Shown: positions 10,547 to 59,567, counted from the stretch's first letter. The stretch is 64,000 nucleotides of DNA from Patescibacteria group bacterium (GCA_019454415.1 JACFOI010000003.1:14361-78360); one strand, 5' to 3'. Notes: a model not told the origin generated them from the letters alone. Made by a program: numbers and translations.

Positions 10547-10554
10547 GGGGAATC

Positions 10555-24306: not shown

Positions 24307-24370
24307 TTTTCTGCCTGACAACAATCCTATTCTTGGTCTCTAGTTGAACTGTGTGTACAATGGAAATCGA

Positions 24371-25595: not shown

Positions 25596-25597
25596 CT

Positions 25598-31591: not shown

Positions 31592-31603
31592 AATAGGTAT
31601 CGT

Positions 31604-40014: not shown

Positions 40015-41811
40015 TTGTTCTCTTCTTTTGTTTTATATCGTTCTTATACCAAAATGCAACAAATAGTGACTGTAGCAAGAAGTGTTTTGAGCTGGGTTTG
40101 GAAAAATGGCCTCTTTCTGTCTCTGGCAGTAGCAGCTGCTGCACTGAAACTTTGGTTGCTTGATAGTCAGGATCTCACCTATCAGGGTTACAGCTTTCAT
40201 GATGAAATGCTGTTTGTTCGTCTGGCCCACAATATTATCGAAAGTGGGTGGCTGGGACCTTACGATAACTTAACCCTCGCTAAGGGGACTTTCCTTCCGC
40301 TTTTTTTAGTATTTAACTGGGCGCTCGGACTTCCCTTGTTGGTGACACAACAGCTATTGTACATTGCGGCTGTCACAGCAATCTCTTGGGCTATTCGCCC
40401 ACTGATTAAAAACCGTTTCTTATTACTCTTCTTGTTTATCATCTTACTGTTCCAACCGGCTTCCTTTGAGGGAGACTCTACTGCCAGAATTTTACGGTCT
40501 TCCATAGGAACCAGTTTGTCACTCTTTATCTTTGCCGGTTTTTTCAGACTTTGTCTGACTAAAATTCGTCAAGTGGAAGCAATTTGGTTGGGGAGCCTGA
40601 CTGGATTAGCTCTTGGACTGTTTTGGATAAATCGTGAAGATAACTTATGGATTCTGCCGGCTGTCGCCATTCTATTGGGTGGAAAGTGGGTGATAAGTTT
40701 TTTCCGCCATCAAATAAATAAACCTCTCTTTACTTTCAGTTCAGCCGTACTGTGCTGGGCAGTATTGCCTGTTTTTCTTGTTTCTCTCGTGAATGTGCAC
40801 TTCTATCAAATTTTCACAGTAACTGAGTTCCAGCACTTTGCATTCCCCGAAGCCTACGGGGCACTGTTGCGGGTTCGTCCGGCGCAGCGTTATCGGTATA
40901 TTCCGGTTACCCGCAGTACGCGTCAGATACTGTACAAGCTGAGTCCGGCTTTTAAGGAACTAGAAATTCCTTTGGAAGATCACTATGCCTCGGGATGGGC
41001 AGAAAATAGTGTTGACCTAACTGGTTTTAAGCCGCGGGAGAAACAGGTTGCCGGTGGATGGTGGATGTGGGCACTGCGGGATGCAGTCAATGCGGCCGGC
41101 TACGGTTCGTCCGGTGCTACGGCAGCTGCTTACTATATCCGGCTAACAAACGAGATAAATGCACTTTGTGACGACGGAACGCTGATCTGCACACCGCCTC
41201 ATAAAGTGATGACCCCTGTTCTTTCTGTCGATGATTACCGGCGGATCATTCCCGGCTTCTTTGAGTTGTGGATCGCGTATTTTTCGCGGCAACATCTCTC
41301 TGTTTACAACAGTCACTCTTCCGGAACAGAACTCGACGAGTATCTTTTCCGCAGTCTCACCCACGAGAAACTCTACCACAACGAAGACTATTATTTTGAT
41401 GATTGGAACCAGGCGACCCTGAAACAAAAACAGCTCTATGTCTTAGAGCAGCTGACGAGAAAGTACCAAACGTATGCTTTGCCCTTTGTTCTTCTCGGTA
41501 TTTTAAGCTATATCTACATTGCTATCAGGCGAGACCAGTATGCATGGGTGCTGCTTGCTATTCCCGCTTCAACTCTTTTTCTTAACTTAGTAGTAACCAT
41601 CATTCACTTCACCTCTTTTTGGGCATTCGGGAACGTCTACTTAAGTCCAATGTACCCATTATTTTTGATTTTCTCTTTCCTGAGTATTCTACGGGTACCC
41701 AGTCATTTACGCAGAGAGTGGGAGTTCTCACCGTTCAATAAAACCAAACCGCGGATCCTGAAGAAGGGTTTTAGTGATCTCGTCCGCGTAGATCCGGTGA
41801 GCCAGAACTGA
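40015..41811 (+). CDS. GT-C fold membrane glycosyltransferase (PMT_2/ArnT-like)
   Basis: Polytopic. First-loop acidic motif FHDEMLFVRLAHNI (DE motif of the GT39/GT83 family). Large C-terminal periplasmic domain. Confidence 0.55.
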   Translation: MFSSFVLYRSYTKMQQIVTVARSVLSWVWKNGLFLSLAVAAAALKLWLLDSQDLTYQGYSFHDEMLFVRLAHNIIESGWLGPYDNLTLAKGTFLPLFLVFNWALGLPLLVTQQLLYIAAVTAISWAIRPLIKNRFLLLFLFIILLFQPASFEGDSTARILRSSIGTSLSLFIFAGFFRLCLTKIRQVEAIWLGSLTGLALGLFWINREDNLWILPAVAILLGGKWVISFFRHQINKPLFTFSSAVLCWAVLPVFLVSLVNVHFYQIFTVTEFQHFAFPEAYGALLRVRPAQRYRYIPVTRSTRQILYKLSPAFKELEIPLEDHYASGWAENSVDLTGFKPREKQVAGGWWMWALRDAVNAAGYGSSGATAAAYYIRLTNEINALCDDGTLICTPPHKVMTPVLSVDDYRRIIPGFFELWIAYFSRQHLSVYNSHSSGTELDEYLFRSLTHEKLYHNEDYYFDDWNQATLKQKQLYVLEQLTRKYQTYALPFVLLGILSYIYIAIRRDQYAWVLLAIPASTLFLNLVVTIIHFTSFWAFGNVYLSPMYPLFLIFSFLSILRVPSHLRREWEFSPFNKTKPRILKKGFSDLVRVDPVSQN

Positions 41812-42690
41812 GGGATGAGTTTCACTCTTCGACACAAACATTTTTTGCTGCTCAGGAGTATTGTCGGGCGCAGGCATTTTGAAGGTGAGAACAGGAAAAC
41901 CAGCTTTTTTGTACACCTCAGTCATCGCCAAGCTGTCCGGATTCGAGGTTAAGAGTGAATCTAATGAAACGTACAACGCGTTTTTCTTGGGGAAGTCCGG
42001 AAGCAGCTTCTGCACAACGCACCAGTTTTTGGTATCTGCTTCTAGAGAGCGCTTGACTCGCTGCGGATATACTACTGTTACATCAATCTCTGCCCAATCT
42101 TCAGAGACATCCCAAACCGTTTCTCCCTCGCACTGCTCTAGCTCTTCTTCACCCTCAGGCCCGTACCAGGAGTATTTCTTCAGGAATGCATCGTTATGGA
42201 CGATGCCAAAGATTGAAAGATCGGCCTTCTGTCCGGTCCGCAAGAATGCTTTATACTTCCGCCACTGATCGACAATGTTATTTCCTTCAATCGCGAAAAC
42301 GAGTACTTTCGTAGGACGATACTCGTTTAGTTTCTTCTCCAAAAGATCGGCGAACCGTTCCTGCTCCCGGACACCCACACCCCAAACATACGAATCTCCA
42401 TAGAGGGCAATTGTGAACTCATTGGTGGCCTGTGTCCCTAAAATGCGAGGATCTTTCTGTTCATAGATAAACTCTTCCAGCGCGAGCATGTCCTGAGCCC
42501 GGGTACCATATCCTGCTAATCGGTGATAGGTACTATCCTCTACCACCCAGTAACCATGTGCCTCTGATTTTTGAAAAAAGAACTTATCAAAAAAGTAGTG
42601 TTCAGCCACCCAATAACAGGCTGCCAGGGTAAAACAGACACTGACAGACAACATACAAAAAAGCGTAAATAGTTTAAGCGATCTTGGCAT
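41728..42690 (-). CDS. SGNH/GDSL-family hydrolase (esterase/acyltransferase-like), N-terminally anchored
   Basis: GDSYVWGVG block I. Paralog of 58467-59567. Confidence 0.65.
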   Translation of the reverse strand: MPRSLKLFTLFCMLSVSVCFTLAACYWVAEHYFFDKFFFQKSEAHGYWVVEDSTYHRLAGYGTRAQDMLALEEFIYEQKDPRILGTQATNEFTIALYGDSYVWGVGVREQERFADLLEKKLNEYRPTKVLVFAIEGNNIVDQWRKYKAFLRTGQKADLSIFGIVHNDAFLKKYSWYGPEGEEELEQCEGETVWDVSEDWAEIDVTVVYPQRVKRSLEADTKNWCVVQKLLPDFPKKNALYVSLDSLLTSNPDSLAMTEVYKKAGFPVLTFKMPAPDNTPEQQKMFVSKSETHPSVLAHRIYADEITKTLLQDPRFGFIER

Positions 42691-42698
42691 AGATGATG

Positions 42699-43511
42699 TT
42701 ACAAACCTTCAATATCATCAATTGAAGGATAAATGTTGTAACGCTTTTGGTTAATAGGGATCTGGGAGCCAATATGAACTCTATAGTTATCGAACATAAC
42801 AACTTCGTTCTCATTAACCACACGTACTGTCAGATCGGCCCAGATCACGACATCCTTGTATATAGGATGTTTCCTGATGTGTAAGTTCCCGGAGCTATCC
42901 TGAGTAATTTGCGTTGCTGGACTCACCTCTACCTTAGTAATTTTGACTAGCTGCTTGCCCAGTGAGTTAGTAACTGTATCTCCCACGTGGATCTCCTTTG
43001 CCAAGGTGGGAGCAATACTCCCCAAAAAGGTTTTGACATGAATCACCTTCTCCGTTGCATTTACTTGAGCAGTCCCGGGGACATCAGTCACGATTCCGTC
43101 AAACGTAACATCATGAAGATTGAACCTCATGGGAGTTCCATACATTAAGTTTTTCCCGCGGGCAGAGTACAGTTTAGTCCGGGTGTCGTAGGTGGCCCGG
43201 AGCCGGATATCCAAATAAACAACTTTGTTCTCCGGAGTAATTGAGTAGCTTTCTACATTTACAATCTCGGCGATTGTCCGTCCTACCACGTCCCTTTCTA
43301 GATCACCGACATGGAATCGCCATGAGTAATCATTTCTGGGGGTGTCATGTGCAGTCAGTACTTCCTGATTCGTCACTTTAAAACGAATAGTAATGTAGGT
43401 GGACTTCCGATAGAAGAAAAAGAAGAAACCGACCAGCACTACTACTGCTGCACTGAAGATGAGTGTGTCTACCCAGTGTAGCTTGCGTAACTTTTTCAGA
43501 ATTTTTTTCAT
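42699..43511 (-). CDS. N-terminally anchored uncharacterized protein (paralog of 52371-53252)
   Basis: Basic N-terminus + TM (AAVVVLVGFFFFFYRK) + beta-rich domain. Clear paralogy to 52371-53252. Confidence 0.45.
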   Translation of the reverse strand: MKKILKKLRKLHWVDTLIFSAAVVVLVGFFFFFYRKSTYITIRFKVTNQEVLTAHDTPRNDYSWRFHVGDLERDVVGRTIAEIVNVESYSITPENKVVYLDIRLRATYDTRTKLYSARGKNLMYGTPMRFNLHDVTFDGIVTDVPGTAQVNATEKVIHVKTFLGSIAPTLAKEIHVGDTVTNSLGKQLVKITKVEVSPATQITQDSSGNLHIRKHPIYKDVVIWADLTVRVVNENEVVMFDNYRVHIGSQIPINQKRYNIYPSIDDIEGL

Positions 43512-45064
43512 GCACTCCTCTTTCCTGCAGACAGATAATACCAGAACGCACCAAAACCAAGAACTAAACCCAAAAATGGGAACTCAACAATACCAATATG
43601 CGGTAAGAGTGTCCAGAAGACGAGGGCGACAAGCAGTCCACTGAGAAAGGTCAGTCTGTAGAACTGGGGTTGGCCCCTTTGAGCTGGGTTGACGATGCAG
43701 TACCTGGCTAACCAGAACAACGGTAACAAAAAAATCAGCAGTCCGATCAGTCCGATCTCCATCCACAACTGGATATATGCCAGGTGAACGACTGCGGGAA
43801 AGACGGTCATCACCCCATCCGGGAAAAGCCGTTGAAGGACATACTCATTGGTGCCTATTCCGTATCCGATAAATGGGTTGGCAATGATCGCCTCTCTAGC
43901 TTCATTGACCATCCTGACCCGGATAGCTAAACCTGCACCTTGATAACCGGCATTCACACTCAACAAAATTCTGGGAATGATCCCAAATGCACTTAATGCA
44001 AATGCAACGACTCCATAGGCTAAGATTCTTCGGCGGCCGATTTTGCGTAACACTACCAAGATTCTTTTCTTATATACCACTCCGCAGAGGAAAAGTAGCA
44101 AGACTGCTCCGATCAATACTGATCGGCTCTGTGTAAGTAAAACCACAAACAGACCAGCCAGACCCGTTCCGATAAGTGGGACTGATTTTTTTTCGATACC
44201 ATAGGGCAAAATCACCGACGACAAGAGTGCCGAAACAAAGGCTAACTGATTGTGGAACATGAAGGTTCCCATCACTCGGAACACTGCATTGTTTTCATCT
44301 AGTCCTGTGGCAAAGCTGCCCGAGCTATTTGCCTCAAACGGAAGTCCGGCACTTCGTTGAAACCACAGCTGCAGCACGCTGACAAAAAACTGTGTGCAGA
44401 TCATAGCCGTGAGTGTCAGAACAAAAAATGAAAGAAACTTTGGGTACTTGACCAGCCCAAAGCAGATTCCCAGCGCCACAAAGTACATCATGCTGTACTG
44501 GAAAAGCCAAACTATCGACAGGGCTGGGAACGGAGAATACACCGTAATGCCATATAGGCAGTAACCAACAAAAAGCAACCATACCAATGTAATTGCACCC
44601 ATTACCACTAACAGTCGCTGGGGGATCTTCCGGAAGTTTTTCAGTAGATCTCTTATCAGAGCTGCAGCTGCCAGCACAAAAAAGAAGCTGGCCATGTGGA
44701 AAAAATAAGCAATGGAGTAACCCTCATAGTATTGAGGTTCCAAAATTGCATTCCCTCGAATTACTTCTACGTCATATCCCTTATTAGGGTGAACAAACTG
44801 CAAGGTAAATATATAGGTCAGAAAAAAGCCCAAGAAAACACTTTTCAGATTTCTTGATAGTAGAATTGCTACAATAAGATATAGTAGGAAAAACTGTCGA
44901 ATGCCGTCGATCAGACCAGTAGAAGACACAGCCACTGTGAGTGCGAACAGAACAGGAGTAAAAACGAATGGCCGATCCCAAATGCTATGTACTCGTTCGA
45001 GGCAGGAACGCCCTGCCGTACGTAGAACGCTGTTTGCGGTCAATACTTTGCCAAACATACTCAA
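43508..45064 (-). CDS. Wzy_C-like (O-antigen polymerase/ligase family) polytopic membrane protein
   Basis: About 12 TMs. Loop AVVHLAYIQLWMEIGLIG similar to the Wzy_C signature. 5' end overlaps divergent GT2, so the start is uncertain. Confidence 0.55.
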   Translation of the reverse strand: MSMFGKVLTANSVLRTAGRSCLERVHSIWDRPFVFTPVLFALTVAVSSTGLIDGIRQFFLLYLIVAILLSRNLKSVFLGFFLTYIFTLQFVHPNKGYDVEVIRGNAILEPQYYEGYSIAYFFHMASFFFVLAAAALIRDLLKNFRKIPQRLLVVMGAITLVWLLFVGYCLYGITVYSPFPALSIVWLFQYSMMYFVALGICFGLVKYPKFLSFFVLTLTAMICTQFFVSVLQLWFQRSAGLPFEANSSGSFATGLDENNAVFRVMGTFMFHNQLAFVSALLSSVILPYGIEKKSVPLIGTGLAGLFVVLLTQSRSVLIGAVLLLFLCGVVYKKRILVVLRKIGRRRILAYGVVAFALSAFGIIPRILLSVNAGYQGAGLAIRVRMVNEAREAIIANPFIGYGIGTNEYVLQRLFPDGVMTVFPAVVHLAYIQLWMEIGLIGLLIFLLPLFWLARYCIVNPAQRGQPQFYRLTFLSGLLVALVFWTLLPHIGIVEFPFLGLVLGFGAFWYYLSAGKRSA

Positions 45065-45786
45065 ATATAGTCATTCTATTTGTTGACGACGCCTCTGAAT
45101 ATAACAGAGAAACGAAAAAAAAGATCAACAAACAACTAGAAAGACATATTGTTGTATGGCGGAAAGAACGCTACTACTCGGTGCGCAACGCATACGAGAT
45201 GATTCACACTTACTGTGATGATCCGGAGGGGATCGTCATTAACTTAGATGCTGATGATTGGTTTTCAACCCCCAGATCGGTGGAGAGGCTGGTACGGTTT
45301 TACAAAAAAGAAAAATGTTTGTTCAGCTACGGCGACTGTTATGTGTGGTCGGGCCAAGATAGTGGCCATACTGAGTGGTCCGACGAAAACTTTGCCAAGC
45401 TCAACTTTTCTTCGTTGCCACTCGCTTCCAAATACATGGAAGCATGCAACATTTCCTATACTAAAAAAGTGAATACCCGTCGGAACTTTCGAGATATCCC
45501 ATTTGTGGTACTGCATCCCCGAAGTTGGAAAGTAAAAGCATTTCGCCTAATTCCTAAGACAGCATTTCAGCGGCCAGACGGAACCTGGTTACACTTTTGT
45601 GAAGACCAAGCAATCTTTTTTTCCCTGTTCGAGATGTTCCCAGAGAGATATGCCGTCTGCCCTCTTCCACTGTCGGTCTACAACCAAGCAAACCCGGCGG
45701 CTGACATTAAGCGTTATCGCCTAGAAACTCTTCGTGATGAAATAGAGATCCGGCGGAAACCCAAGTATGCAACGATTTCGCTATAA
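44968..45786 (+). CDS. GT2-family glycosyltransferase
   Basis: CYVLVRGRNALPYVERCLRSILCQTYSNIVILFVDDASEYN (GT-A N-terminus with DD motif). Confidence 0.6.
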   Translation: MADPKCYVLVRGRNALPYVERCLRSILCQTYSNIVILFVDDASEYNRETKKKINKQLERHIVVWRKERYYSVRNAYEMIHTYCDDPEGIVINLDADDWFSTPRSVERLVRFYKKEKCLFSYGDCYVWSGQDSGHTEWSDENFAKLNFSSLPLASKYMEACNISYTKKVNTRRNFRDIPFVVLHPRSWKVKAFRLIPKTAFQRPDGTWLHFCEDQAIFFSLFEMFPERYAVCPLPLSVYNQANPAADIKRYRLETLRDEIEIRRKPKYATISL

Positions 45787-47347
45787 CATTCACTGCTCCA
45801 AGCTTCTCAGTCTGCCAGTACTGGGCAACCTACTTTATCGGATGCAGCTTCTGATGGTGAAAGCAGGTCTCTCCACACAGTATTGGATCTCCCGAAAGGA
45901 TGTTCCCCTGCGCGGACAGCTTCTGACCGAGATCGAAAAACGGGCAGTGATCATGTTTTGTTCGGCGTGGCAGCTCGGTCGCCAATTGGAAAATTTACAT
46001 GGAAAGTATGTCTTTGATTACACAGGACCTCATCCCAAACACTTGTCTCTGACTGAGCTTTATAACCTGGAATGGGCGTTAATTCTGGCCCAAAGCGTTA
46101 CTTCCCAGAGCATCAAGAAACTGGGAAACCTTCTCCCCCAAAGCTATCCTTTTTGGAGGCCGTATATTCTTTCAGTCCATCAGCAGCTGGACGTTCAGTG
46201 TGACTTTGTCCAACAGACCCTCAATGAACTTTTAGCCCAGGGTAATACAGTCATTCTGTTTAGCCATGTTCAACAGCCTGATACAGTGAAACAAGAACTT
46301 CGTAAGCATCGTCGTCTGATCTATTTCTCGAGTGTCTGTCCGTTGCGTACCTCTCTCTTGCCATTTCGACTGCAGAAGGATGTCCAGTCAGTGTGGGAGA
46401 GTATTGTTCGTCGAACCTTGTATCAGTATGCGCCACCTCAGCATCATCCGGTCTTGTGGTGTTTTGACCCTGATGACGCGAATATCTTACACTTTTGCCC
46501 TCCCCAGACCACGATTATTTTTGATTGTGTTGACTACTACACCAGTACCGACCAAGAGTTAAATAAGAGGGTCACTCGTGATCAACGCCGCTTGATAGAC
46601 GCCGCTGACCTGATGTTTGTGAACTCCAGAACTTTAAAGAAGCTCCACTCTAAACAACGAATGGATAACTTGTTGGTTCCTCAAGGCTTTGACCAACAAA
46701 CTTTTTTTGTGAATAGCAAAGGCAGGCGTTCAAAAACGTCGATTCGTTTCTTCCAGAAACTTAATCGCACCAAAACAAAGTATCGAGCAGTTGTGTCCTT
46801 CGCCGGGGCACTTTCCTATCGAGTCGACTATCCGATGCTCATAGATCTGATCAAACACTGTCCCAAGTATTTGTTTTGTTTACCGGAGACTGAACTTTCT
46901 TGGCCGACTGAAGATCAAGCTGTAGCTTGGCAGCAGCAGCTTCAGCACCTTAGGAAGCTACCGAATGTACTCTGGTTTCCCCGGCTGCAACGCAGTGAAG
47001 TGCGGGCACTTTTGGAAAAAACTACGGTCGGGTTGATCCCTTATGACACTTCCTTTGAGTTAAATCGTTACTGTTTCCCGATGAAGTTCTTCGAGTATCT
47101 GAGCATGGGCTTGCCTGTCCTTTCTACACCTATTCACGAGTTAAAGTACTATCCTCAGTTTGTCTCACTTGGAAAGAATAGTCTCGAACTACGCAAAAAG
47201 TTACACGTTTTAGTAAGAAAGCGAGTGACAAGTCAAACAAAAGAGGCCATGAAACAGTTGTGTTTAGAACACACATGGCAGAAAAAGATTGACGCAATTC
47301 TCTCTGCTATTGATCTCTATCAACGGCGGTACCACCGATTTGTGTAG
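45767..47347 (+). CDS. GT-B glycosyltransferase (GT4-like C-terminal domain), paralog of 49616-50872
   Basis: YCFPMKFFEYLSMGLPVLSTPIHELKY aligns with CCFPMKIMEYFFAQRPVVSTPIPSLLDY in the paralog. Confidence 0.55.
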   Translation: MQRFRYNIHCSKLLSLPVLGNLLYRMQLLMVKAGLSTQYWISRKDVPLRGQLLTEIEKRAVIMFCSAWQLGRQLENLHGKYVFDYTGPHPKHLSLTELYNLEWALILAQSVTSQSIKKLGNLLPQSYPFWRPYILSVHQQLDVQCDFVQQTLNELLAQGNTVILFSHVQQPDTVKQELRKHRRLIYFSSVCPLRTSLLPFRLQKDVQSVWESIVRRTLYQYAPPQHHPVLWCFDPDDANILHFCPPQTTIIFDCVDYYTSTDQELNKRVTRDQRRLIDAADLMFVNSRTLKKLHSKQRMDNLLVPQGFDQQTFFVNSKGRRSKTSIRFFQKLNRTKTKYRAVVSFAGALSYRVDYPMLIDLIKHCPKYLFCLPETELSWPTEDQAVAWQQQLQHLRKLPNVLWFPRLQRSEVRALLEKTTVGLIPYDTSFELNRYCFPMKFFEYLSMGLPVLSTPIHELKYYPQFVSLGKNSLELRKKLHVLVRKRVTSQTKEAMKQLCLEHTWQKKIDAILSAIDLYQRRYHRFV

Positions 47348-49616
47348 CATATTGAGAGAGTTCCATAGCCGACTGTGGGTCTCTTTCTTGATAAAGCTGG
47401 GCTTGTCGGGAGAGCTGTTCCGCGAGTGGACCCTTCAGCTTGTAATTGAATGCATACTCCGGACCCATCTTTTCTTCCCATGCCAGGATAACCTTGCTAT
47501 ATGCAATCAAAACCTGGGCTTCTTGTTTTGTAGTTGAGGAGCTTTCCTGCCAGGAGGTAAGAATAAGCTCAGCGACTTCCCAGTCATACTCACCCATTCT
47601 TAGGATGTTATTCATCAACTGCTCAGCAATTTCCGGTTGTCCTTGAGCAAGTGCTTGCTGTAGTTGGAGAGATTCACCTGCATACAACGGCCGGGCATAT
47701 CGAAACACAAAATCAGTATCGAGTATGTTAAGCAGGGGGAGAGTTTCAGAAATGGGAAGTTGCGCTATCTGCTCTAGGACAGGTAAAGAAGGATATAGAA
47801 ACTGCTCGGGCTGGAGCGTATAGCTTAGCTCATAGAAATGTAGCGCTTGAATGGGGTTCTTATCCAGTAGTTGATTGGCCTTCTCTATTCCCAAAGCTGC
47901 AATGACACCATTTTCCGGATAAGAGTAGTTATCCAATAAGTTCCGGTTACTTCTTTCGATCCATGTTGTGAGCGCTTGCTCGGCCAGGTCGTTATCCTCC
48001 CCTTTCAGAGCAGCATCCACGTACTGGAAGTATCGGAGCTGATTATGGGGATCAAGCGGAATAGCAGTTTGTAGGTACTTTGCCTTTTGCGTGGAAGGAA
48101 TATTAGCTGCTTGCGCCGCGGAGTCCCAAATCCGCGGATGGTGTCCATATAAAGTGAATAGGAAGTTTTGTGTTGAAGTAGAGATAAGCTCCGGCTGGGA
48201 TAAACTGTTCTCTACCCGCCAGTATGCAAAAGGGAAAAGGGAGAGTGCTGTATCGTACTGTTTCTTTTGCCAGAAAAACACTGACGTCAGATAAAGTCCG
48301 GCCCAAAGCAGAGTACCTACTGCCAGCGTCGCAAAGTAAACCTTCACTCCCATGCCGGAAGCAGGAAGGAAGAATTGTGTGTGCTTGCGAGTAATCCAGG
48401 TACGAAACCGACGGACAAAAGCTCCCAAACTGCTTTCTTGCTTGACCTCACTGATCCAGCAAGCGGTGACAATCAAGAAAAGTAACCAAAGGCCTATCAA
48501 ATGCAGACTAAAGTTGAAAAAAGACTCCAGAATTACTGCCAATACAGCAAGGGCAAAACAGAACGACAGCCTCTGGTGTGGGAATCGCAGTTGATAGAGT
48601 CCCTTCCGAATGATCCAGAAGAAAAAAACCAAGAAGAGCAGCCCTCCCAACAGTCCGTACTCAGTGAATGCTTGGAGGAGCTCATTGTGAGCGTAACCAG
48701 AATACAGTCCCTCTCTGCTTTGGAGTCGAAGAGAAACTAAAGAGAACGTTCCGCCACCCCATCCAGTCAGCGGACGCTGGATCAAAGCTTGGAGAGCCTG
48801 TCTCCAGTACTCAGGTCTCAGTTCCTGATGAAGAGGTTTACAAAGCTGCGCTTGAAAAACCGGGTACGGACAGTCACCACTAGTCGTCATCACTAACGAC
48901 CAAGCAAGAGAGACAGCAAGTAATACTCCGAAAGAAAGAAAAAGTAACCCTGCCCCTAACTTCTTCAACTTTTTATCGGCAGTGGTAAACCACAGCACTC
49001 CTACCTCGGTAACTCCCAAGACAATACCCAAGCGGGCAAAGGTCAGTAACAAGCTGCCAAATACAAAGACTATTCCCAGCCGAGCAAGCCAGCTTTTCTT
49101 CTCTTCTGCTGTCCACCAGAGCAAAGGTAAGGCTAGTAAGAATAACACTGCTGCCTGGTTGTGGCCGTACATCGCTGTCAATAGCGTGGTACTGGGAAGA
49201 TATGATGAAAGCTGAGGAACTGCTGTATAGAGGAAAGTCAGCGCACCGAGGCACACAGCCAAGGTACTAACACCTAGGGCCATGGCTGACGTAGTCAACC
49301 ACCTTGGGTTTCTGAGAAGCGTAAAGACGAACACCAGATAAGAGAGCGCATAGAAGATAGCAGCGTTGACTGTTAAAGGGATGCTTATTGTGGTCAAGAG
49401 TGACAGGAATGTGATCCCGACCAAAGCTCCGAACAGGTAGATCGGTAAAATAAACTGTGAGACTCTTTCAAACTTAACTTCCCGAATAAAAAATAGCTCT
49501 AACAGCGCCAATAATCCAAAAAGTGGAATGCCAAGTGTTGTTTCCCCAAAAATTAAGAGCAAGAACAGCAAACAAAAAAAAATCAAAAAGTAGATGGCTT
49601 GCGAGCCTGAATACAT
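47307..49616 (-). CDS. Wzy_C (O-antigen ligase/PglL-like) membrane protein fused to C-terminal TPR-like domain (paralog of 31604-33832)
   Basis: Signature YAHNELLQAFTEYGLLGG. C-terminal roughly 330 aa helical repeats. Confidence 0.75.
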   Translation of the reverse strand: MYSGSQAIYFLIFFCLLFLLLIFGETTLGIPLFGLLALLELFFIREVKFERVSQFILPIYLFGALVGITFLSLLTTISIPLTVNAAIFYALSYLVFVFTLLRNPRWLTTSAMALGVSTLAVCLGALTFLYTAVPQLSSYLPSTTLLTAMYGHNQAAVLFLLALPLLWWTAEEKKSWLARLGIVFVFGSLLLTFARLGIVLGVTEVGVLWFTTADKKLKKLGAGLLFLSFGVLLAVSLAWSLVMTTSGDCPYPVFQAQLCKPLHQELRPEYWRQALQALIQRPLTGWGGGTFSLVSLRLQSREGLYSGYAHNELLQAFTEYGLLGGLLFLVFFFWIIRKGLYQLRFPHQRLSFCFALAVLAVILESFFNFSLHLIGLWLLFLIVTACWISEVKQESSLGAFVRRFRTWITRKHTQFFLPASGMGVKVYFATLAVGTLLWAGLYLTSVFFWQKKQYDTALSLFPFAYWRVENSLSQPELISTSTQNFLFTLYGHHPRIWDSAAQAANIPSTQKAKYLQTAIPLDPHNQLRYFQYVDAALKGEDNDLAEQALTTWIERSNRNLLDNYSYPENGVIAALGIEKANQLLDKNPIQALHFYELSYTLQPEQFLYPSLPVLEQIAQLPISETLPLLNILDTDFVFRYARPLYAGESLQLQQALAQGQPEIAEQLMNNILRMGEYDWEVAELILTSWQESSSTTKQEAQVLIAYSKVILAWEEKMGPEYAFNYKLKGPLAEQLSRQAQLYQERDPQSAMELSQYATQIGGTAVDRDQ

Positions 49617-50872
49617 CAGGTAGATGGTATCATCTCGCTGAGATACTCATCAACGGAATCCAGCTTGCGCTTCCATGTTTGATTGAGGGCTATGTTCCGA
49701 AGCTTTTGTTGTTGATCTTTCGACCATTTTACTTGGAGGGCCTTTTGAATAGCCCTGGAAAACTGTCGAGATGTATTACCAAAGAAAACAAACTCTTTAT
49801 AGTCTAGTAAGGAAGGGATGGGCGTTGAGACTACTGGTCTTTGTGCAAAAAAGTACTCCATGATCTTCATCGGGAAGCAGCACACATTAAACTCCCACTG
49901 TAAGTCATAAGGAACGATCAAGACATCGCATTCTTTCATCATCGGAAGCAGCTGATTTCTTTTCAGTAATTGAATCCAAGTCACATTTGTTTTTCTCAGT
50001 AGGTGATCAAGTTTTTTTTCGCTGGCCTCACTCTGGCCTACCGATTGATCTTTTCCTCTAGGCCCCACAAATAAAAAATTCCACTCAGGATGCTGCTGCG
50101 TGACTCGCAGTAACATCTCTACATCCAAACGTTGGTTCACACCGCCGAAAAAGCCGATCAACGGACGTGTTTCTTTTCGTAGTTTTTGCAACTTCCTCCG
50201 AACTGCCAAAGGAGGCTGGGTGGGGGTTTTGAATCCCTGGAGATCAAAGCCCTGAGGGACTTGCCGCGGAGCGATCTGTGCAAGTGGCTCTATCCGCGAC
50301 AAAACGGGCCGCGTCAGAACTGTAATGCTACGGGCAGCTTGGATTAACAGCCGCCGCTGCTGGTCAAGCTTCTGCCTTGATTGAACATCCATTGTCGTAT
50401 GCCAATCCACACAGTCAAAGTGGAGATGCCAGCTTTTAAAGAAAGGCAATACGTCAATATCCTGGGGATGAAAAATCCATAGTATCCGCTGAGCGTCTGG
50501 TTGTTGCCTCCCGATAAGTAAGGAAAAGAGCAAAAGATTAAGCTGAAGATTAAGATATTTAGAAAATGAGAACCTTTGGAAAGGCAAAAACTGGAATACA
50601 CCTAAATAGATTGGCTGTCTGAGAGCCTTTAGTTGATCTGCAGTTCGGAGCGGAAGGAAACTTCGCGCTTGTGTAACTCCATTTAACCAATGCTTCCATC
50701 CGGTTTTTCCTCGCCAGCTTTCCCCAAGAGCCAGTATAATGACCACATTTTGAGCAGCTAGCTCGCCTGCTGTTCGAAAAACAAAGTCGCAAATGCCTTC
50801 CGGGCGATCATACGTCGGAATACAAACTAACTTATGGCTCAAAAATCGTCGGTGTTGCAAGCTACTTTTCAT
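49616..50872 (-). CDS. GT-B glycosyltransferase paralog
   Basis: See 45767-47347. Shares 1 nt with the upstream gene. Confidence 0.55.
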   Translation of the reverse strand: MKSSLQHRRFLSHKLVCIPTYDRPEGICDFVFRTAGELAAQNVVIILALGESWRGKTGWKHWLNGVTQARSFLPLRTADQLKALRQPIYLGVFQFLPFQRFSFSKYLNLQLNLLLFSLLIGRQQPDAQRILWIFHPQDIDVLPFFKSWHLHFDCVDWHTTMDVQSRQKLDQQRRLLIQAARSITVLTRPVLSRIEPLAQIAPRQVPQGFDLQGFKTPTQPPLAVRRKLQKLRKETRPLIGFFGGVNQRLDVEMLLRVTQQHPEWNFLFVGPRGKDQSVGQSEASEKKLDHLLRKTNVTWIQLLKRNQLLPMMKECDVLIVPYDLQWEFNVCCFPMKIMEYFFAQRPVVSTPIPSLLDYKEFVFFGNTSRQFSRAIQKALQVKWSKDQQQKLRNIALNQTWKRKLDSVDEYLSEMIPST

Positions 50873-52387
50873 TCCCTTCTCACTCGATGGCAGCTCAACA
50901 AACTATATCACCTCATCACTGATAATTCGTACCAGTCGGTACCGTGGGTGACGCTGCTTTTTTGCGTACTGAGCGCCGTCTTACCCAGTAACAAGCTGTT
51001 CTTTGTTGTGGCAACACTCTATTTTTTGGCGTTGGTTTACATTACCCGTTCAATCTATAAAGCACTCTTTTTTGCCTTCATTCCGTTTGGGATGCTGAAC
51101 ATTGGGCAGATCTACATCACGACTGTTATTCCGTTTAATCAGTTGAAAGGGACCACCTACTATGAAGGGCGACAGCTTTATTTTCGGTTCTCTCCCTTTT
51201 TCGTGTTGGGCATAACCTCAGCCGTCCTGCTGATGTTAGAAATCATTCGGCGAAAGGGTCAACATATCTTTACGATTCCTCACTTGTTTGTGCTAGGCAG
51301 TGTTCTGTTTAGCCTTGTATCTGTTTTTCATACTGAGCAACAGCCACTCTTCTCACTAGCGACTGTACTCGGGACAGTTGGCTCGATTTGTTGGATCCTA
51401 CTTGCCCAGCTTCTGCTGAAAGATTCTCGTTTTCTGGAACAAACAAAGATTCTGAAGACATTTTTACTCGTTCTGATCCTGATGACGTCGCTCCAAACCG
51501 GCGTCGCACTCGCTCAATACGTTAAACGGTCGACCCTCAATCTACGTATCGAACAGTCAACTATCATTCCCACCTTCGGCCAAGGTGCTGACGAAGATGC
51601 GACACAGTTCCGACCTATTGGTCTCCAAACACATGCCAATGATCTGGCAAATGACTTACTTATTTTCCTCTTCACAGGTATTTTGCTCCTTGAGTGGCTG
51701 CGTTCCCGGAAACAACATTTCCCCTGGTGGTTTGAACTTTTTTTCATCACTGAGGCAGTGGTCGTGATTGTGCTTACTCAGAGCCGGACTGCTTACCTAG
51801 CTCTTTTGGCGAGTAGTCTGTTTTTCTTTTTTGCTCAGCGACAAAGAAGCCTTGATTTGATCAAGGAGTTGGAGAAACATCTGAGACCGTTTGTTTTTGT
51901 CCTAGTTATTGCCGCGCTACTTTTCGTTCCTCTTGTCTCACGAAGACTTCTTTACTCGCTCAATAGCTTTGGGACCGGTGGCGGCTTTACTACCAGACAA
52001 CAGCTGGAAAAAGAAGCCATCCTCCTTGTCCAAAAAAATATACTGTGGGGCGTAGGACCTGGAATGTTCATCCCTGCTGCCTTCAAAGAAAATCCTCAGG
52101 GCATCATGCGGTACTTTCCGGAAGCTGTGCATAACGGGTACCTGCTCTTTATTTCTGAGCACGGACTCCTGTCATCAATCTGCATACTTCTCTTCTTTTA
52201 CTTTCTACTCAAAGAGTATGAGAAGTACCCTAATACGATGTTGCGAACTGTGATGCACACCGGCTTGATCAGCATCTTAGTGATGATGTTGCTTCATCCT
52301 TTTCAGAACTTTATTACGCTGTTTGTCTTGATTTCCTGGTTGTTGGTGTATATTCAGCAAGGAGCAAAGTATGAACCTAAAAAGTAA
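50834..52387 (+). CDS. Wzy_C-like (O-antigen ligase family) polytopic membrane protein
   Basis: Signature FPEAVHNGYLLFISEHGLLS. About 12 TMs. Confidence 0.65.
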   Translation: MAQKSSVLQATFHSLLTRWQLNKLYHLITDNSYQSVPWVTLLFCVLSAVLPSNKLFFVVATLYFLALVYITRSIYKALFFAFIPFGMLNIGQIYITTVIPFNQLKGTTYYEGRQLYFRFSPFFVLGITSAVLLMLEIIRRKGQHIFTIPHLFVLGSVLFSLVSVFHTEQQPLFSLATVLGTVGSICWILLAQLLLKDSRFLEQTKILKTFLLVLILMTSLQTGVALAQYVKRSTLNLRIEQSTIIPTFGQGADEDATQFRPIGLQTHANDLANDLLIFLFTGILLLEWLRSRKQHFPWWFELFFITEAVVVIVLTQSRTAYLALLASSLFFFFAQRQRSLDLIKELEKHLRPFVFVLVIAALLFVPLVSRRLLYSLNSFGTGGGFTTRQQLEKEAILLVQKNILWGVGPGMFIPAAFKENPQGIMRYFPEAVHNGYLLFISEHGLLSSICILLFFYFLLKEYEKYPNTMLRTVMHTGLISILVMMLLHPFQNFITLFVLISWLLVYIQQGAKYEPKK

Positions 52388-53252
52388 GCCGCTGCAGACT
52401 ATTTGGAAAAGAGTGCGTTCCCTCGGTTGGATTGACCTTATCGGCGTATGTATTTTTCTGGGCATACTGAGTGTCGCTTTCTTTTTCTTTTTACGAAAAG
52501 CCGACTATGCGTACATCACTCTTCGTGTCTCCCAATCCGATAACATGAATCCCTACAGTGATCAGGCACCTGTTTGGTTTATTGAAAAGATTCAGCCCGG
52601 CTTAAAAGAGACTGACGGCCTGGGCAGGGACAACGTCGTGATTGAAAAAGTTCATCGTTTCAAATCTTCTGACTTGAATCAGGATTTTTACGTCGACCTC
52701 AAAGTCAGATCTGTCTACAACTCCAGAACTAAACAGTTTACCTACAATGGATCCACCTTGCTGATCGGCAGCTACCAGTCTTTTAAACTTCAGGGAATTC
52801 AGCTTTCCGGAGTGATCGTCGATGTTCGCGAGCAAGATACACCGCGTGAAGAAAAAACCTTCCTGGTGGAAGGGTACGTGAATCCGGCCTACAACGACGA
52901 ACAGTATAGTGTGGCCAACACAGTGGTGGACGGTATCAAGAACTATCTGGCCGACACATTGTTTACCGGTCTCAAGACAGTCGACGTAGATGGTCAGGCC
53001 ACCGCCGAGATTATTAGTATTCAAAAGCGTCCAGCTAGACGTCAGTTTGTTTCCGGATCGTCCTTTGTGAGCGTTCCCGATCCTGAGAGACAACGAGTTG
53101 AGATGACTTTAAGAATCAAGGGGGTCAAAATTAATGATGCCTATTACTACAAGAACGAAGCACCCATTGTCGTAAACTCAACGATCTATTTGACGTTCCC
53201 TCAAAGTAATATCAACTTTACCCTTACTCATTTTGAGGAAGAAAAAAAGTAG
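52371..53252 (+). CDS. N-terminally anchored uncharacterized protein (paralog of 42699-43511)
   Basis: Same architecture and alignable blocks (YITLRV/YITIRF, SRTKQFTY/TRTKLYSA). Confidence 0.45.
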   Translation: MNLKSKPLQTIWKRVRSLGWIDLIGVCIFLGILSVAFFFFLRKADYAYITLRVSQSDNMNPYSDQAPVWFIEKIQPGLKETDGLGRDNVVIEKVHRFKSSDLNQDFYVDLKVRSVYNSRTKQFTYNGSTLLIGSYQSFKLQGIQLSGVIVDVREQDTPREEKTFLVEGYVNPAYNDEQYSVANTVVDGIKNYLADTLFTGLKTVDVDGQATAEIISIQKRPARRQFVSGSSFVSVPDPERQRVEMTLRIKGVKINDAYYYKNEAPIVVNSTIYLTFPQSNINFTLTHFEEEKK

Positions 53253-53267
53253 AAAAATATTTCTTTC

Positions 53268-54881
53268 TCACTGTGATGAAGAAGGTTCTGTGCTTACGTC
53301 GTTGCTGCATAACCAGCTAGAACTGGCATCATTCTCTGTTTCTTTGCGACAGCAGTGTTCAATGTTTCTCTCTCCATTCTGGTAGTAGCTGGAGACCGTG
53401 TAAGCTGTTTGATTCTTTAGAAAAATTATCTTCTTCTGCTGGAGGCTGGAACATGAGATCAAAGGGCGCGCAACCAGTTCAGACTCAAACTGAGCTGACT
53501 CATTCGAGCGACTCATGATAGCAGGCAGCTCGTCCAGATTATTGGTATTCAGGAGTGTCAGCCAGGACCACGACGGTAAAAGAATGATATTGCTGCTCTC
53601 CAACGTTTCCCCAACCTCCACTTGCTCCTTTTTCAAAAACTCAATTTTTTGAGCCTCTTTTCTTTGAAGGTTGATTGTAGTCTTCCAAATTTCGACATAC
53701 GAGCGGACCCAGAAAACAGACGTCAACCCGAGGAGTAATCCTACAGAAACTTTGAACACAGGTAAAGCTCGTTCTCGTATCTTTCTGTTGATTACCTCAG
53801 CACTGGTGCAAAAAAACATCACCAAAATCGGGGTAAATAAGCGAGGCAGAAATAGAGAAAGCCTTGGAAGGAACTGATAAAAGAAGAAACGCTGTGAGAG
53901 AAAAGGCATCACAAGTGAGATCGATACAATTAGCAGGCAGGGCAACACTACCAGCGCTCCCAAGTCAAAAGAACTTGTCCAGAATAGTGGCTTCTTCTTC
54001 TTTTGGAAAATCAAAACCAGACTGGCTGCTATTGCCAAATAGAACAGCACTGTTGCCAGTGACAGGGACACCGGCCCTAAAAAGTAGTTCGTTTCAAAAC
54101 CAAGTAAAGTGAAGAATAGACTTGGAATGTTGAAGAAGCCGGGAATCGGAATCCAGGATGCTTCTTCAAACTGGCGTTTCACTGAAAAACCAGCCAAGAG
54201 AAAAAACTCCCCCAGACTCAGGATACTGAGTGCTATTGCCGGCCAGTGTCTAAAAGTTTTCTCTTTTAGGTCATCTGCTACTAGCCAAGCGACCACCCCC
54301 AACGTCAAAAAGAAAAATGCATAGGAGATCGCGTTCCCCAGCAAGAGGAGCGCGATCACCATCAGCAGATATTTTTTTGATCGATCTTGCTGAAAGCTTT
54401 TGAGTGCAATGTAGGTCAACGATGCTATTAAACACACTAGACCATACATACGGAGATGAATGCCCGTGAATACAAAAAATGGATCAAGGAACAGCGTGAC
54501 TGCTAAAAAGAGAACGGCAGACGTGGCCCACTGTTGCTTTCTCACCCACCACAGCACACACACACCGCCCAGAAGTTGTGGTAACACGCTCAATAGCAAT
54601 CGGAGAACAAACAGATTGCTGGTGAAAACCAGCAGACCCTTTAAGAAAATATACGAGAGTCCGGGATGAACATCTCTATTCTGAATCAGAAGCTCGAATG
54701 GAGTTCTGCTCCAGGAGAAAAGAAGCGAGAACTGTTCGTCCAACCACAAGGGATAGTGGGCGGTCAAAGTTATTCTGATGAAGAAGCCCAAGCCTATGAT
54801 CAGACACAGAAAAAAAGTGACGAGTTTATGTGACATATGTTGAGAAAAGCGAAACCAACTGGTGTGTAACTTGATCGTCAC
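53268..54881 (-). CDS. GT-C fold membrane glycosyltransferase (PMT_2/ArnT-like), second copy
   Basis: AHYPLWLDEQFSLLFSW DE motif in the first loop. More than 10 TMs. Confidence 0.55.
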   Translation of the reverse strand: MTIKLHTSWFRFSQHMSHKLVTFFLCLIIGLGFFIRITLTAHYPLWLDEQFSLLFSWSRTPFELLIQNRDVHPGLSYIFLKGLLVFTSNLFVLRLLLSVLPQLLGGVCVLWWVRKQQWATSAVLFLAVTLFLDPFFVFTGIHLRMYGLVCLIASLTYIALKSFQQDRSKKYLLMVIALLLLGNAISYAFFFLTLGVVAWLVADDLKEKTFRHWPAIALSILSLGEFFLLAGFSVKRQFEEASWIPIPGFFNIPSLFFTLLGFETNYFLGPVSLSLATVLFYLAIAASLVLIFQKKKKPLFWTSSFDLGALVVLPCLLIVSISLVMPFLSQRFFFYQFLPRLSLFLPRLFTPILVMFFCTSAEVINRKIRERALPVFKVSVGLLLGLTSVFWVRSYVEIWKTTINLQRKEAQKIEFLKKEQVEVGETLESSNIILLPSWSWLTLLNTNNLDELPAIMSRSNESAQFESELVARPLISCSSLQQKKIIFLKNQTAYTVSSYYQNGERNIEHCCRKETENDASSSWLCSNDVSTEPSSSQ

Positions 54882-57736: not shown

Positions 57737-58470
57737 GATAAACGTAGCTCTACATTGTTCTTAAAAGCCCGGCCTGCTACACACTCTGGATACTGCCATA
57801 TCCCATTCTGAAAAAGCAATGGCACTTGAGAGTTATATACAGTAACGGCTTCTATTTTATCTGGTGAAGACCATGAAAGCGACGTAGGTGAAGTTACCAC
57901 TTGCCAAAACTGAGGCCACCGCCAGTTACTCAGTTGAAGTGCATAAGGGATATCAACGTAATACAGCAAACGTTCTGTGGGAACATATTTTTCAAGGATA
58001 CGTCGAACTAAAAGATGATCTGCATGCTGTCCTACTCCGAGCGGACAAACAACTACCGCCTCTGTTTTGACTTCCTGCTGGAGCCTAAGCTCCAGTTGAG
58101 ACTGCCAGGAGGCTGAATCCTTAATCGTTCCGGCAAATAACTCTTGGTGAGTCTGATAAGTAGGAGTAGAGTCCTGTTCACGGAAGCCAGCGTCGACCAG
58201 ATTCAGCCACTTATAACTAGCCACTCCTAACTTTCCCATGCTTTCTCTATCTTCTTGTCCACGTACCTTTTCAAACTCTGTTACCGACTCTACATGGCCT
58301 TTTTTCATGAACTCAATAGAGTCCTTTGAGAGGTGCTCTGCTCCGAACCTCGTAAAAACGGTTATGACTTCTACTTTCATACCCTTTTTTGCCCAAGCCA
58401 GAATATGCTCCCCGCAGGATAAGCTGGCATCATCGAAGTGGGGTGAAAAGACTTGAATGTTTACACTCAT
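57733..58470 (-). CDS. PIG-L/LmbE-family N-acetylglucosaminyl deacetylase
   Basis: VFSPHFDDASLSCGEHI (HxDD motif). Confidence 0.7.
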   Translation of the reverse strand: MSVNIQVFSPHFDDASLSCGEHILAWAKKGMKVEVITVFTRFGAEHLSKDSIEFMKKGHVESVTEFEKVRGQEDRESMGKLGVASYKWLNLVDAGFREQDSTPTYQTHQELFAGTIKDSASWQSQLELRLQQEVKTEAVVVCPLGVGQHADHLLVRRILEKYVPTERLLYYVDIPYALQLSNWRWPQFWQVVTSPTSLSWSSPDKIEAVTVYNSQVPLLFQNGIWQYPECVAGRAFKNNVELRLS

Positions 58471-59567
58471 TTTTCTGCCTGATCAATAAGGTGATGTGTC
58501 ATGATGTAATCATAGAGGATCTGGGCAAAGAAACGGTTTGCAGCTGCAGAGGGATGCTCTTCTCTCTTGCTGACTGTGTAGTTAACTCGAAGCTCTTCAC
58601 CGCTATCCGGCTGATCCGCTAAGACATTTTTTCCTGTTTTTTTCAACTCATTCACGTACTCGGAAAGTGCCGAAGTCTGCCAAAAGAAGCTATCAAAAGC
58701 AATATAGACAGCACGCTGCGTGGGTAATTTAGACAAAACTGTCTGGAACATACAGTAGTTCTTGGTATTTGGGTTAGTAAACGTTTCATCTACACGTTGG
58801 TGAAGATCATACGCTTGCGCATCAACCGGGTTTTTATCGTTGTATGGAAAGTCATAGATGGCTCTGATTTGGTCACAGCCATGTTCTATTTGAGCGTACG
58901 CATCTGGGTCATACCGATCGGCATTATTGAAGAGCAAGTCATTGTCCACGATCCCAAAAATAAAAAGATCCACATCCGGATGCTGTTCTAAAATAATTTG
59001 ATACTTCAGATAATTATCAAATATATTATCGCCGGCCATACCATACGAAAGAATCTTAACTTTACTTTCCCCTCCGAGCATCTTTTCGAGTACATGGGTG
59101 AACCGGTCGTTTTCCCTGAGGCCTTGCCCCCACACATAGGAGTCACCGATAACTGCAATCGTAAAGCGATGCGGTGTCGAGGTACCGAGGACTGTCGGCT
59201 GTCTTCCTTCTTTTTTATCTTGAATAAATTGGTGAAGCTGAATCATCTCCGCCGCTCTTTTGCCAAAGGCCTCATACTTCCGACCAGGCGAAAAGTAACC
59301 ATGAGCAGCAGAACGCTGGTAAAAGAAAAGATCAAAGTAGTAACGCTCGGCAACCTGATAGCAAACAACCACTGAAAGAGCCATGGAAAGTACGACCAGT
59401 CCCACACGAAAAAGTGGAGTCTGCCAACGATGAGACTCTATAGTTTTTATTGAGCTTTCCTGAATCACAAAAGCATGTAAATAAATGCACTTACCGGAGA
59501 AGCAGTTGTAAAGGTGACCAGGATGCCGAAGATGACAATCACGATCACTGGTGGAATAAGCCACCAC
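58467..59567 (-). CDS. SGNH/GDSL-family hydrolase paralog
   Basis: GDSYVWGQG. Alignable with 41728-42690 over the full length. Start uncertain. Confidence 0.6.
   Translation of the reverse strand: MVAYSTSDRDCHLRHPGHLYNCFSGKCIYLHAFVIQESSIKTIESHRWQTPLFRVGLVVLSMALSVVVCYQVAERYYFDLFFYQRSAAHGYFSPGRKYEAFGKRAAEMIQLHQFIQDKKEGRQPTVLGTSTPHRFTIAVIGDSYVWGQGLRENDRFTHVLEKMLGGESKVKILSYGMAGDNIFDNYLKYQIILEQHPDVDLFIFGIVDNDLLFNNADRYDPDAYAQIEHGCDQIRAIYDFPYNDKNPVDAQAYDLHQRVDETFTNPNTKNYCMFQTVLSKLPTQRAVYIAFDSFFWQTSALSEYVNELKKTGKNVLADQPDSGEELRVNYTVSKREEHPSAAANRFFAQILYDYIMTHHLIDQAEK

Follow-up and report, generated by a model that had tools for sequence, protein, structure and literature searches.

Two apparently ancient types of a GT-B, Wzy_C and DUF4330 gene cassette in mirror orientation within a putative cell-surface glycopolymer locus of Patescibacteria

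The subject of this work is a 64,000-nucleotide (nt) stretch of contig JACFOI010000003.1 (positions 14361-78360) of a Patescibacteria group bacterium (GCA_019454415.1), hereafter called the window, and within it the gene of a Wzy_C-family membrane protein with a C-terminal TPR-like solenoid (the central Wzy_C-TPR protein), which lies between two homologous GT-B glycosyltransferase (GT) genes. We found that these GT-B genes belong to two inverted three-gene cassettes which, judged by their sequences, are ancient types and not sister copies, and that the mirror layout is fixed in one small clade, being conserved and not variable among the relatives sampled. The whole region is, in our estimation, rather probably the core of a Wzy-type cell-surface glycopolymer locus of Patescibacteria (the Candidate Phyla Radiation, CPR), ordinary but tidy. 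An earlier sequence-only reading of the window had proposed that a GT and ligase unit was segmentally duplicated and diverged inside the glycan island, as a way of generating glycan diversity. The genes concerned are listed below with their coordinates in the window.

42699-43511, minus strand: left DUF4330 protein, 270 aa; an N-terminal transmembrane helix (residues 13-33), then a beta-rich part
43508-45064, minus strand: left short Wzy_C protein, 518 aa as the longest open reading frame (ORF); Pfam Wzy_C 58.6 bits; gene callers place the start at 44935 (475 aa)
44968-45786, plus strand: GT2 glycosyltransferase, in the left (type A) cassette only, upstream of the left GT-B gene; Pfam Glycos_transf_2 49.4 bits
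45767-47347, plus strand: left GT-B, TuaH-like, 526 aa, with an N-terminal extension of ~140 aa encoded at 45767-46186
47307-49616, minus strand: central Wzy_C-TPR protein, a Wzy_C / WaaL-fold membrane protein with a C-terminal TPR-like alpha-solenoid, 769 aa, ATG start
49616-50872, minus strand: right GT-B, a TuaH-like GT4 enzyme, 418 aa; Pfam Glyco_trans_1_4 and Glycos_transf_1
50834-52387, plus strand: right short Wzy_C protein, 517 aa as the longest ORF; Pfam Wzy_C 66.7 bits; gene callers place the start at 50948 (479 aa)
52371-53252, plus strand: right DUF4330-like single-pass membrane protein, 293 aa; 417 bits with the cassette hidden Markov model (HMM)

Two inverted three-gene cassettes

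All-against-all BLASTP comparison of the ORFs of the window revealed three mirrored pairs of homologs around the central gene, i.e., the two GT-B proteins, encoded on opposite strands (26% identity over 395 aa, E 6e-43), the two short Wzy_C proteins (24% identity, E 7e-11) and the two DUF4330 proteins (26% identity, E 1e-17). The repeated unit is an inverted cassette composed of a GT-B gene, a short Wzy_C gene (~518 aa) and a DUF4330 gene, which spans 42699-47347 on the left and 49616-53252 on the right, and the Wzy_C-TPR gene lies between the cassettes, without a mirror partner and outside the repeated unit. The homology of the flanking GT-B genes, as claimed in the sequence-only reading, was borne out, the identity in pairwise alignment being above 20% and shared blocks being present. 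Its duplicated GT and ligase unit stood in part: a GT gene and a Wzy_C gene do occur twice, but the partner of each GT-B gene is a short Wzy_C gene together with a DUF4330 gene, and not the Wzy_C-TPR gene. The mirror ends at these three genes, as the products of two genes further out (40015-41811 and 53268-54881) showed no similarity to each other in BLASTP or in profile-profile comparison of their ortholog alignments (hhalign probability 1.4%).

The common block of the two GT-B proteins reads CFPMKFFEYLSMGLPVLSTPI versus CFPMKIMEYFFAQRPVVSTPI. The CFPMK..EY...P[VL]STPI block pointed out earlier is real and can also be seen in the DNA as a 41-nt inverted repeat (47057-47097 and 49854-49894, 78% complementary), which encodes the conserved N-x-x-C-F-P-M-K-x-x-E-Y block and is the sole DNA-level similarity between the cassettes. 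An invertible or recombining element was considered and ruled out, since there are no long inverted repeats.

With the Pfam models, the right GT-B matches Glyco_trans_1_4 (40.4 bits, cut-off 27) and Glycos_transf_1 (35.6 bits, cut-off 26.4), and the left one gives a marginal match to Glyco_trans_1_2 (26.4 bits, cut-off 25). The best NCBIfam model for both is TuaH (right, E 1e-27 and 97.0 bits; left, E 2e-15 and 56.5 bits), and as these scores are far below the cut-off of 550 bits of the TuaH equivalog NF047676, we call the proteins TuaH-like only. The family profile matches the GT4 structures 6kih and 4xso. Both copies retain the full set of 20 alignment columns that show no variation among 17 homologs, and on this sequence evidence both enzymes look active.

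Both short Wzy_C proteins retain the Arg and His residues that do not vary across 27 cassettes. The DUF4330 assignment (PF14221) differs in strength between the copies, with 53.9 bits for the left one against a cut-off of 27.6 bits and only 14.6 bits (E 0.037) for the right one.

The genes are tightly packed. The stop codon of the right GT-B gene overlaps the start codon of the Wzy_C-TPR gene (TGATG), and the identical 1-nt overlap occurs in loci L007, L010, L011, L012, and L027; because of this overlap, the two genes are likely co-transcribed and translationally coupled. On the other side, the 3' ends of the left GT-B gene and the Wzy_C-TPR gene converge and overlap by 41 nt (47307-47347), and convergent overlaps of 32-80 nt are also found in L007, L010-L013, and L019, those of the single-cassette loci L013 and L019 being 32-44 nt. 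The start of the right short Wzy_C gene at 50948 leaves a divergent promoter region of ~75 bp, common to this gene and the right GT-B gene.

Distribution of the cassette and age of the split

Members of the GT-B family occur in 46 GTDB species genomes. Of the 46 loci, 31 carry the full set of three cassette genes, as judged by HMMs of the cassette proteins, with which the ORFs of all examined loci (21 kb per locus) were classified. The typical locus carries one compact cassette, in which the DUF4330 and Wzy_C genes are on one strand and the GT-B gene is divergent, and the tight mirrored pair is confined to the clade of the window. Informative organism names are all Patescibacteria, Microgenomates, Gottesman-, Roizman-, Woese- or Pacebacteria. 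Many cassette-bearing metagenome-assembled genomes with CAY*/CAZ* accessions are titled 'uncultured Pseudomonadales/Gammaproteobacteria', and these titles look like placeholders or errors.

The GT-B tree separates the left from the right copies into two clades with 100% support, each containing one copy per genome. A neighbour-joining tree of the concatenated cassette proteins (27 cassettes, 1131 columns, 200 bootstraps) placed the right cassettes together with the single cassettes of L016, L017 (Pacebacteria UBA6180), L021, and L026 (99%), and the left cassettes together with those of L034 (Roizmanbacteria), L050 (Woesebacteria), L022, L025, and L028 (94-100%). The raw bit scores agree with this: for the short Wzy_C proteins they are 56 for left versus right, 279 for left versus L050 and 275 for right versus L016, and for the DUF4330 proteins 73, 207, and 197, respectively. 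Neighbour-joining trees of the single genes likewise put each copy among cassettes from other lineages. The grouping is based on unrooted bipartitions supported at 94-100% and on these raw scores. Each cassette being closer to cassettes of other Microgenomates than to the other one, the split would predate the lineage of the window.

Gene content points in the same direction. An orthologous GT2 gene lies between the Wzy_C and GT-B genes of the left cassette and of L034, L028, and L025, and the N-terminal extension of ~140 aa is shared by the left GT-B and those of L034, L037, and L028. Because these traits are common to the left cassette and to outside loci, we regard the two cassettes, on sequence grounds, as ancient types, A (left, with the extra GT2 gene and the long GT-B) and B (right, with neither).

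Two closely related metagenome-assembled genomes, CAYOIJ010000001.1 (L021 and L047) and CAYMSV010000002.1 (L023 and L043), also carry two cassettes each, in which the GT-B genes point toward each other and enclose a long Wzy_C gene; these cassettes are 13-27 kb apart and belong to type B and a third type (the L027/L043/L047 group), not to A and B.

Conservation of the layout and population variation

The mirrored order DUF4330, Wzy_C, GT-B, Wzy_C-TPR, GT-B, GT2, Wzy_C, DUF4330 was found in L007, L010, L011, L012, and L015, which stand for five further distinct related genomes (L007 is from the same UBA924 genome as L014, and L015 is cut by the contig end). In these relatives, the central protein is 36-42% identical to that of the window and the right GT-B 36-55%. 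At the shorter distance, the exact 769-aa sequence of the central protein occurs on eight metagenome contigs, and six contigs that represent the same population in different samples match the window at 99.7-99.98% identity, being colinear and free of gaps. The sequence-only reading had suggested looking for copy-number or presence/absence variation of these units, and none was seen at either evolutionary distance, i.e., in the five related genomes and the six strain-level contigs; the invariant layout speaks against the idea that the locus generates glycan diversity.

The population single-nucleotide polymorphisms (SNPs) over 37.3-59.6 kb comprise 20 nonsynonymous and 54 synonymous changes, which indicates overall purifying selection. 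The lack of nonsynonymous SNPs in the central gene is an artefact of choosing the contigs by the exact sequence of its product. In the right GT-B gene, the six contigs show seven nonsynonymous and six synonymous SNPs, against 13 and 48 elsewhere (Fisher p = 0.034, uncorrected for 18 genes), a weak hint of relaxed or diversifying selection, or noise. The ratio of nonsynonymous to synonymous rates (dN/dS), also suggested earlier for the paralog pairs, is uninformative at 24-28% amino-acid identity, since synonymous sites are saturated.

The central Wzy_C-TPR protein and its relatives

The predicted model and the sequence divide the central protein into three parts:

48447-49616, minus strand: residues 1-390, WaaL-like membrane core of 12 helices (DSSP of the predicted model)
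48267-48446, minus strand: residues 391-450, a Lys/Arg-rich amphipathic linker, then a 13th transmembrane helix (422-450)
47334-48257, minus strand: residues 454-761, an acidic all-helical repeat domain of ~15 helices, a TPR-like alpha-solenoid

The Pfam match to Wzy_C (PF04932) covers residues 181-329 (45.2 bits, cut-off 31.7). The model shows a WaaL-type fold of 12 helices, in which helices 9 and 10 are joined by a large external loop; 324 of its residues were aligned to WaaL at 13% identity, and a search of the PDB by sequence gave no match. Invariant residues of the external loop (246-311) are C249, C259, K260, E265, R267, GWGGGTF, and H310-N-E312, and H152 and R195 are likewise invariant. 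Within the Wzy_C match, R195, R267, and H310 do not vary among 11-12 homologs. Residues R215, R288, and H338 of Escherichia coli WaaL were reported as common to WaaL and PglL (PMC3643930), and as the spacings are similar (72 and 43 residues here, 73 and 50 in WaaL), the two triads may be equivalent.

The TPR character of the solenoid is below threshold in Pfam (TPR_3, 16.9 bits against a cut-off of 20.7, over 16 residues). The domain holds 23 Lys/Arg and 39 Asp/Glu residues, and the charge pattern of the loops suggests a linker inside the cell, following the positive-inside rule, and a solenoid outside: the 13th transmembrane helix would probably place the solenoid beside the catalytic loop.

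A second gene of this kind, as the sequence-only reading had noticed, is indeed present in the island:

31481-33832, plus strand: other Wzy_C-TPR-like protein, 783 aa, a distant paralog of the central protein; Wzy_C 61.8 bits

The two proteins share 28% identity over 618 aa (E 4e-35). When 1.84 billion representative proteins were searched with a profile of the long Wzy_C family, 455 clusters, mostly full-length, were obtained at E <= 1e-30, and the two copies fall into separate subclades with 100% support, i.e., into different subfamilies. Orthologs of the central protein are few (~10 clusters at 37-75% identity), and one of them is annotated as 'O-antigen ligase family protein [Patescibacteria group bacterium]'. 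Long Wzy_C genes are also found adjacent or close to the cassette in L013, L019, L027, L029, and others, so that such a gene often accompanies the cassette, whether coupled to the GT-B gene or converging with it.

The central protein differs from the WaaL O-antigen ligase of Cupriavidus metallidurans (PDB 7TPG/7TPJ): beyond the shared fold, it has the presumably cytoplasmic linker, the 13th transmembrane helix, the putatively external alpha-solenoid of ~310 aa, and the conserved Cys pair C249/C259 in the external loop. To our knowledge, Patescibacteria have no lipopolysaccharide and no lipid A-core acceptor, and lipid A or core biosynthesis genes were not found in the window. The protein also bears a likeness to O-oligosaccharyltransferases acting on proteins. 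Wzy_C with C-terminal TPR repeats is the architecture of the S-layer enzyme WsfB of Paenibacillus alvei and of PglL of Neisseria (PMC2943079); the central protein has the same layout, WsfB being compared by its published architecture. Its Arg/Arg/His residues may correspond to those reported for WaaL and PglL (PMC3643930), and, as may be compared with WsfB, PglL, and PilO/TfpO of Pseudomonas, the glycan cluster around its gene includes an initiating phosphotransferase, and PilN/PilO-like genes border the island. It differs from these enzymes in its much longer solenoid (~15 helices) and in that no target protein gene and no PglL_A motif were detected. The last motif (PF15864) separates PglL from WaaL (PMC3643930), and, as it was not detected, we do not assign the protein to the PglL family; by analogy, it may work like a Wzy_C and TPR O-oligosaccharyltransferase, which is not to say that it is a PglL.

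The cassettes resemble the tuaA-H cluster of Bacillus subtilis in that TuaH-like GT-B proteins are paired with Wzy_C-family proteins in a wall-polymer-like cluster with a TagA/WecG-family enzyme; unlike there, the short Wzy_C proteins have no match to TuaE (a Wzy-like polymerase) at E <= 0.01, and the partner is DUF4330, a mostly beta-strand protein. With Wzx/Wzy loci of O-antigens and capsules, the region shares the matching of a polymerase-like protein with specific GTs and the clustering of GTs, modifying enzymes and an initiating transferase. It departs from them in having four Wzy_C-family genes in one locus, in that no Wzz/PCP-type co-polymerase, Wza or recognisable Wzx was found, and in being invariant in the relatives sampled, whereas typical serotype loci are variable.

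The glycan island and other features of the window

The wider contents of the window are as follows:

left part of the window: housekeeping genes, i.e., TsaD, class II ribonucleotide reductase, NrdR, two class A penicillin-binding proteins, Cmk, SmpB, LepA, MurJ, and PilN/PilO-like proteins
~27.7 kb to beyond 64 kb: glycan island, a chromosomal locus for a putative cell-surface glycopolymer
island enzymes: a Bac_transf initiating transferase, several GT4 and GT2 glycosyltransferases, methyltransferases, a WecG/TagA-family enzyme, and a PIG-L deacetylase
further island enzymes: a carbamoyltransferase, GDSL proteins, an epimerase/dehydratase, and the four Wzy_C proteins

A Wzz-type co-polymerase was not recognisable in the island, and no UDP-glucose dehydrogenase was found in the window. 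The Rfam scan of the window gave no RNA family. A scan for sigma-70 promoters gave fewer sites (9) than shuffled sequence (13.7) and is uninformative on operon structure.

Directly upstream of the island there are type IV pilus assembly genes, PilN-like (24344-24940) and PilO-like (24927-25595). They are relevant as neighbours because Wzy_C-family enzymes glycosylate pilins in other bacteria; a pilin gene was not recognised in the 64-kb window, and the PilN/PilO-like genes (24344-25595) are ~22 kb from the central gene. The same stretch (24344-26104), which adjoins the MurJ-family gene at 22615-24306, also contains a 168-aa ORF without family.

Among the other island proteins, two multi-pass proteins on either side of the cassettes (40015-41811, plus strand, and 53268-54881, minus strand) are conserved and without family, and are candidate flippases or GT-C transferases of the pathway. 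The second one (537 aa) gives a faint hint of PMT_2 (GT-C) at E 4.2. Orthologs of both are present in L007 and L010, and of the 537-aa one only in L011 and L012. A pair of GDSL/SGNH-family paralogs (41728-42690 and 58467-59567; 36% identity, E 6e-56) is off mirror position relative to the cassettes. The 997-aa protein encoded at 35789-38782 combines a PQQ-type beta-propeller, DUF5060, and an apiosidase-like (glycoside hydrolase-like) region, and is kept in all orthologous loci. A 47-aa DUF5989 ORF lies directly 3' of the carbamoyltransferase gene in L005 (9-152), L007 (96-239), and L009 (78-221); similar small ORFs also occur in L011 and L012, and the counterpart in the window, near 59.5-59.6 kb, is below the ORF-length thresholds used. 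In the single-cassette locus L013, an asparagine-synthase homolog (169-2049) stands beside glycosyltransferases, and the S-layer glycosylation cluster of P. alvei lists an asparagine synthase homolog as well, wsfA (PMC2943079). Outside the island, a GH18 chitinase-like gene (10543-11790) stands between the genes of two paralogous class A penicillin-binding proteins (8078-10546 and 11883-14375), which are 53% identical over 645 aa.

Proposed pathway and alternatives

In the reading that we favour, i.e., an ordinary Wzy-type glycopolymer locus, the synthesis of units linked to undecaprenyl-phosphate would begin with the island's Bac_transf and WecG/TagA-like enzymes. The GT4, GT2, and TuaH-like glycosyltransferases would lengthen these units in the cytoplasm, and the carbamoyl-, methyl-, deacetyl-, and GDSL-type enzymes would modify them. 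Once flipped, the unit completed by each GT-B may be polymerised or added by its partner short Wzy_C protein, perhaps aided by DUF4330, and the long Wzy_C-TPR protein would then transfer the product to an acceptor recognised by its external solenoid, which could be a surface protein (as for O-oligosaccharyltransferases of the WsfB/PglL type), or a lipid or wall acceptor. The A and B cassettes would have come together, or remained together, as a mirrored pair in the ancestor of the clade and been fixed since. The long-term retention of both argues for two fixed, non-redundant functions, not for a generator of diversity.

Several points weigh against this reading or limit it. No dedicated Wzx-type flippase was recognised in the island, the only candidates being the MurJ-family protein (22615-24306) and the two multi-pass proteins, and no pilin or S-layer target gene was found adjoining the central gene. 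The polymerase or ligase role of each Wzy_C protein cannot be read from sequence. The PglL_A motif (PF15864) is absent from the central protein in the Pfam scan at E <= 0.01, and the AlphaFold2 (AF2) model is based on an alignment of only 11 sequences. The trees are neighbour-joining trees of corrected p-distances with midpoint rooting, for which long-branch effects are possible. A literature search turned up no paper mentioning DUF4330, and the search for O-antigen-like loci of CPR or Microgenomates found nothing relevant.

As to the origin of the mirrored pair, a segmental duplication of a GT and ligase unit inside the island, followed by divergence in place and generating glycan diversity, would be the simplest picture of homologous flanks with two more gene pairs in mirror order, and the right GT-B gene is relatively rich in nonsynonymous SNPs (with the uncorrected p-value given above). 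We nevertheless consider it very improbable: the left and right copies are each closer to other Microgenomates cassettes, the type-specific GT2 gene and GT-B extension are common to outside loci, the DNA similarity is limited to the 41-nt motif, the Wzy_C-TPR gene is outside the repeated unit, and the layout does not vary in the related genomes and strain-level contigs. The duplication could instead be very ancient, an inverted one in an early Microgenomates ancestor that gave both types side by side, with most lineages losing or separating one copy and the clade of the window keeping the mirror. All types share the same three genes and the divergent layout, which argues for one ancestral cassette, and the CAYOIJ and CAYMSV genomes also have inward-facing pairs around a long Wzy_C gene. 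These pairs, however, combine B with the third type, most loci are single-cassette within the 21 kb examined, so that many independent losses would be needed, and the present data fit later juxtaposition or horizontal transfer of a cassette equally well; this course of events thus seems to us unlikely.

The roles of the two kinds of Wzy_C proteins may also be reversed, the long Wzy_C-TPR proteins being the polymerases, with the solenoid as a chain-length or scaffold domain, and the short Wzy_C proteins with DUF4330 the ligases that attach the product to the acceptor. PF04932 spans polymerases and ligases with the same Arg/His residues in both (PMC3643930), the closest solved structure was deposited as 'polymerase/ligase', and the island, with its four Wzy_C proteins, lacks a recognisable Wzz-type co-polymerase. 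We hold this assignment to be of low probability. From what is generally known of Wzy specificity, a tight, co-evolving pairing of short Wzy_C and GT-B is what would be expected of linkage-specific polymerases. Moreover, the sole precedent found for Wzy_C with TPR repeats is that of the protein-acceptor transferases WsfB and PglL (PMC2943079).

A bolder reading is that DUF4330, short Wzy_C, and TuaH-like GT-B form an undescribed, Microgenomates-wide assembly module, in which the beta-rich single-pass DUF4330 protein replaces the Wzz-type co-polymerase, and that in the clade of the window two modules of different type feed one external-solenoid transferase, which would link two polymers, or one block co-polymer, to a protein of the surface (such as a pilin or S-layer protein), the whole being a CPR-specific system of protein or wall glycosylation. 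We regard this as quite unlikely.

Implications for the Patescibacteria cell surface

Patescibacteria are mostly uncultured and live attached to other cells, and their envelopes are almost unstudied. Here, a lineage with a genome of ~1.2 Mb spends more than 35 kb on what is probably a fixed surface-glycan pathway, with four proteins of the WaaL fold, and the uncharacterised cassette of GT-B, Wzy_C, and DUF4330 genes is a recurrent building block of genomes of the Microgenomates group. It is also worth mentioning that an apparent local duplication of paralogs can be two ancient cassette types standing side by side. The value of these findings is descriptive, as they provide a candidate module and a candidate acceptor-binding transferase for work on the cell surface of the CPR.

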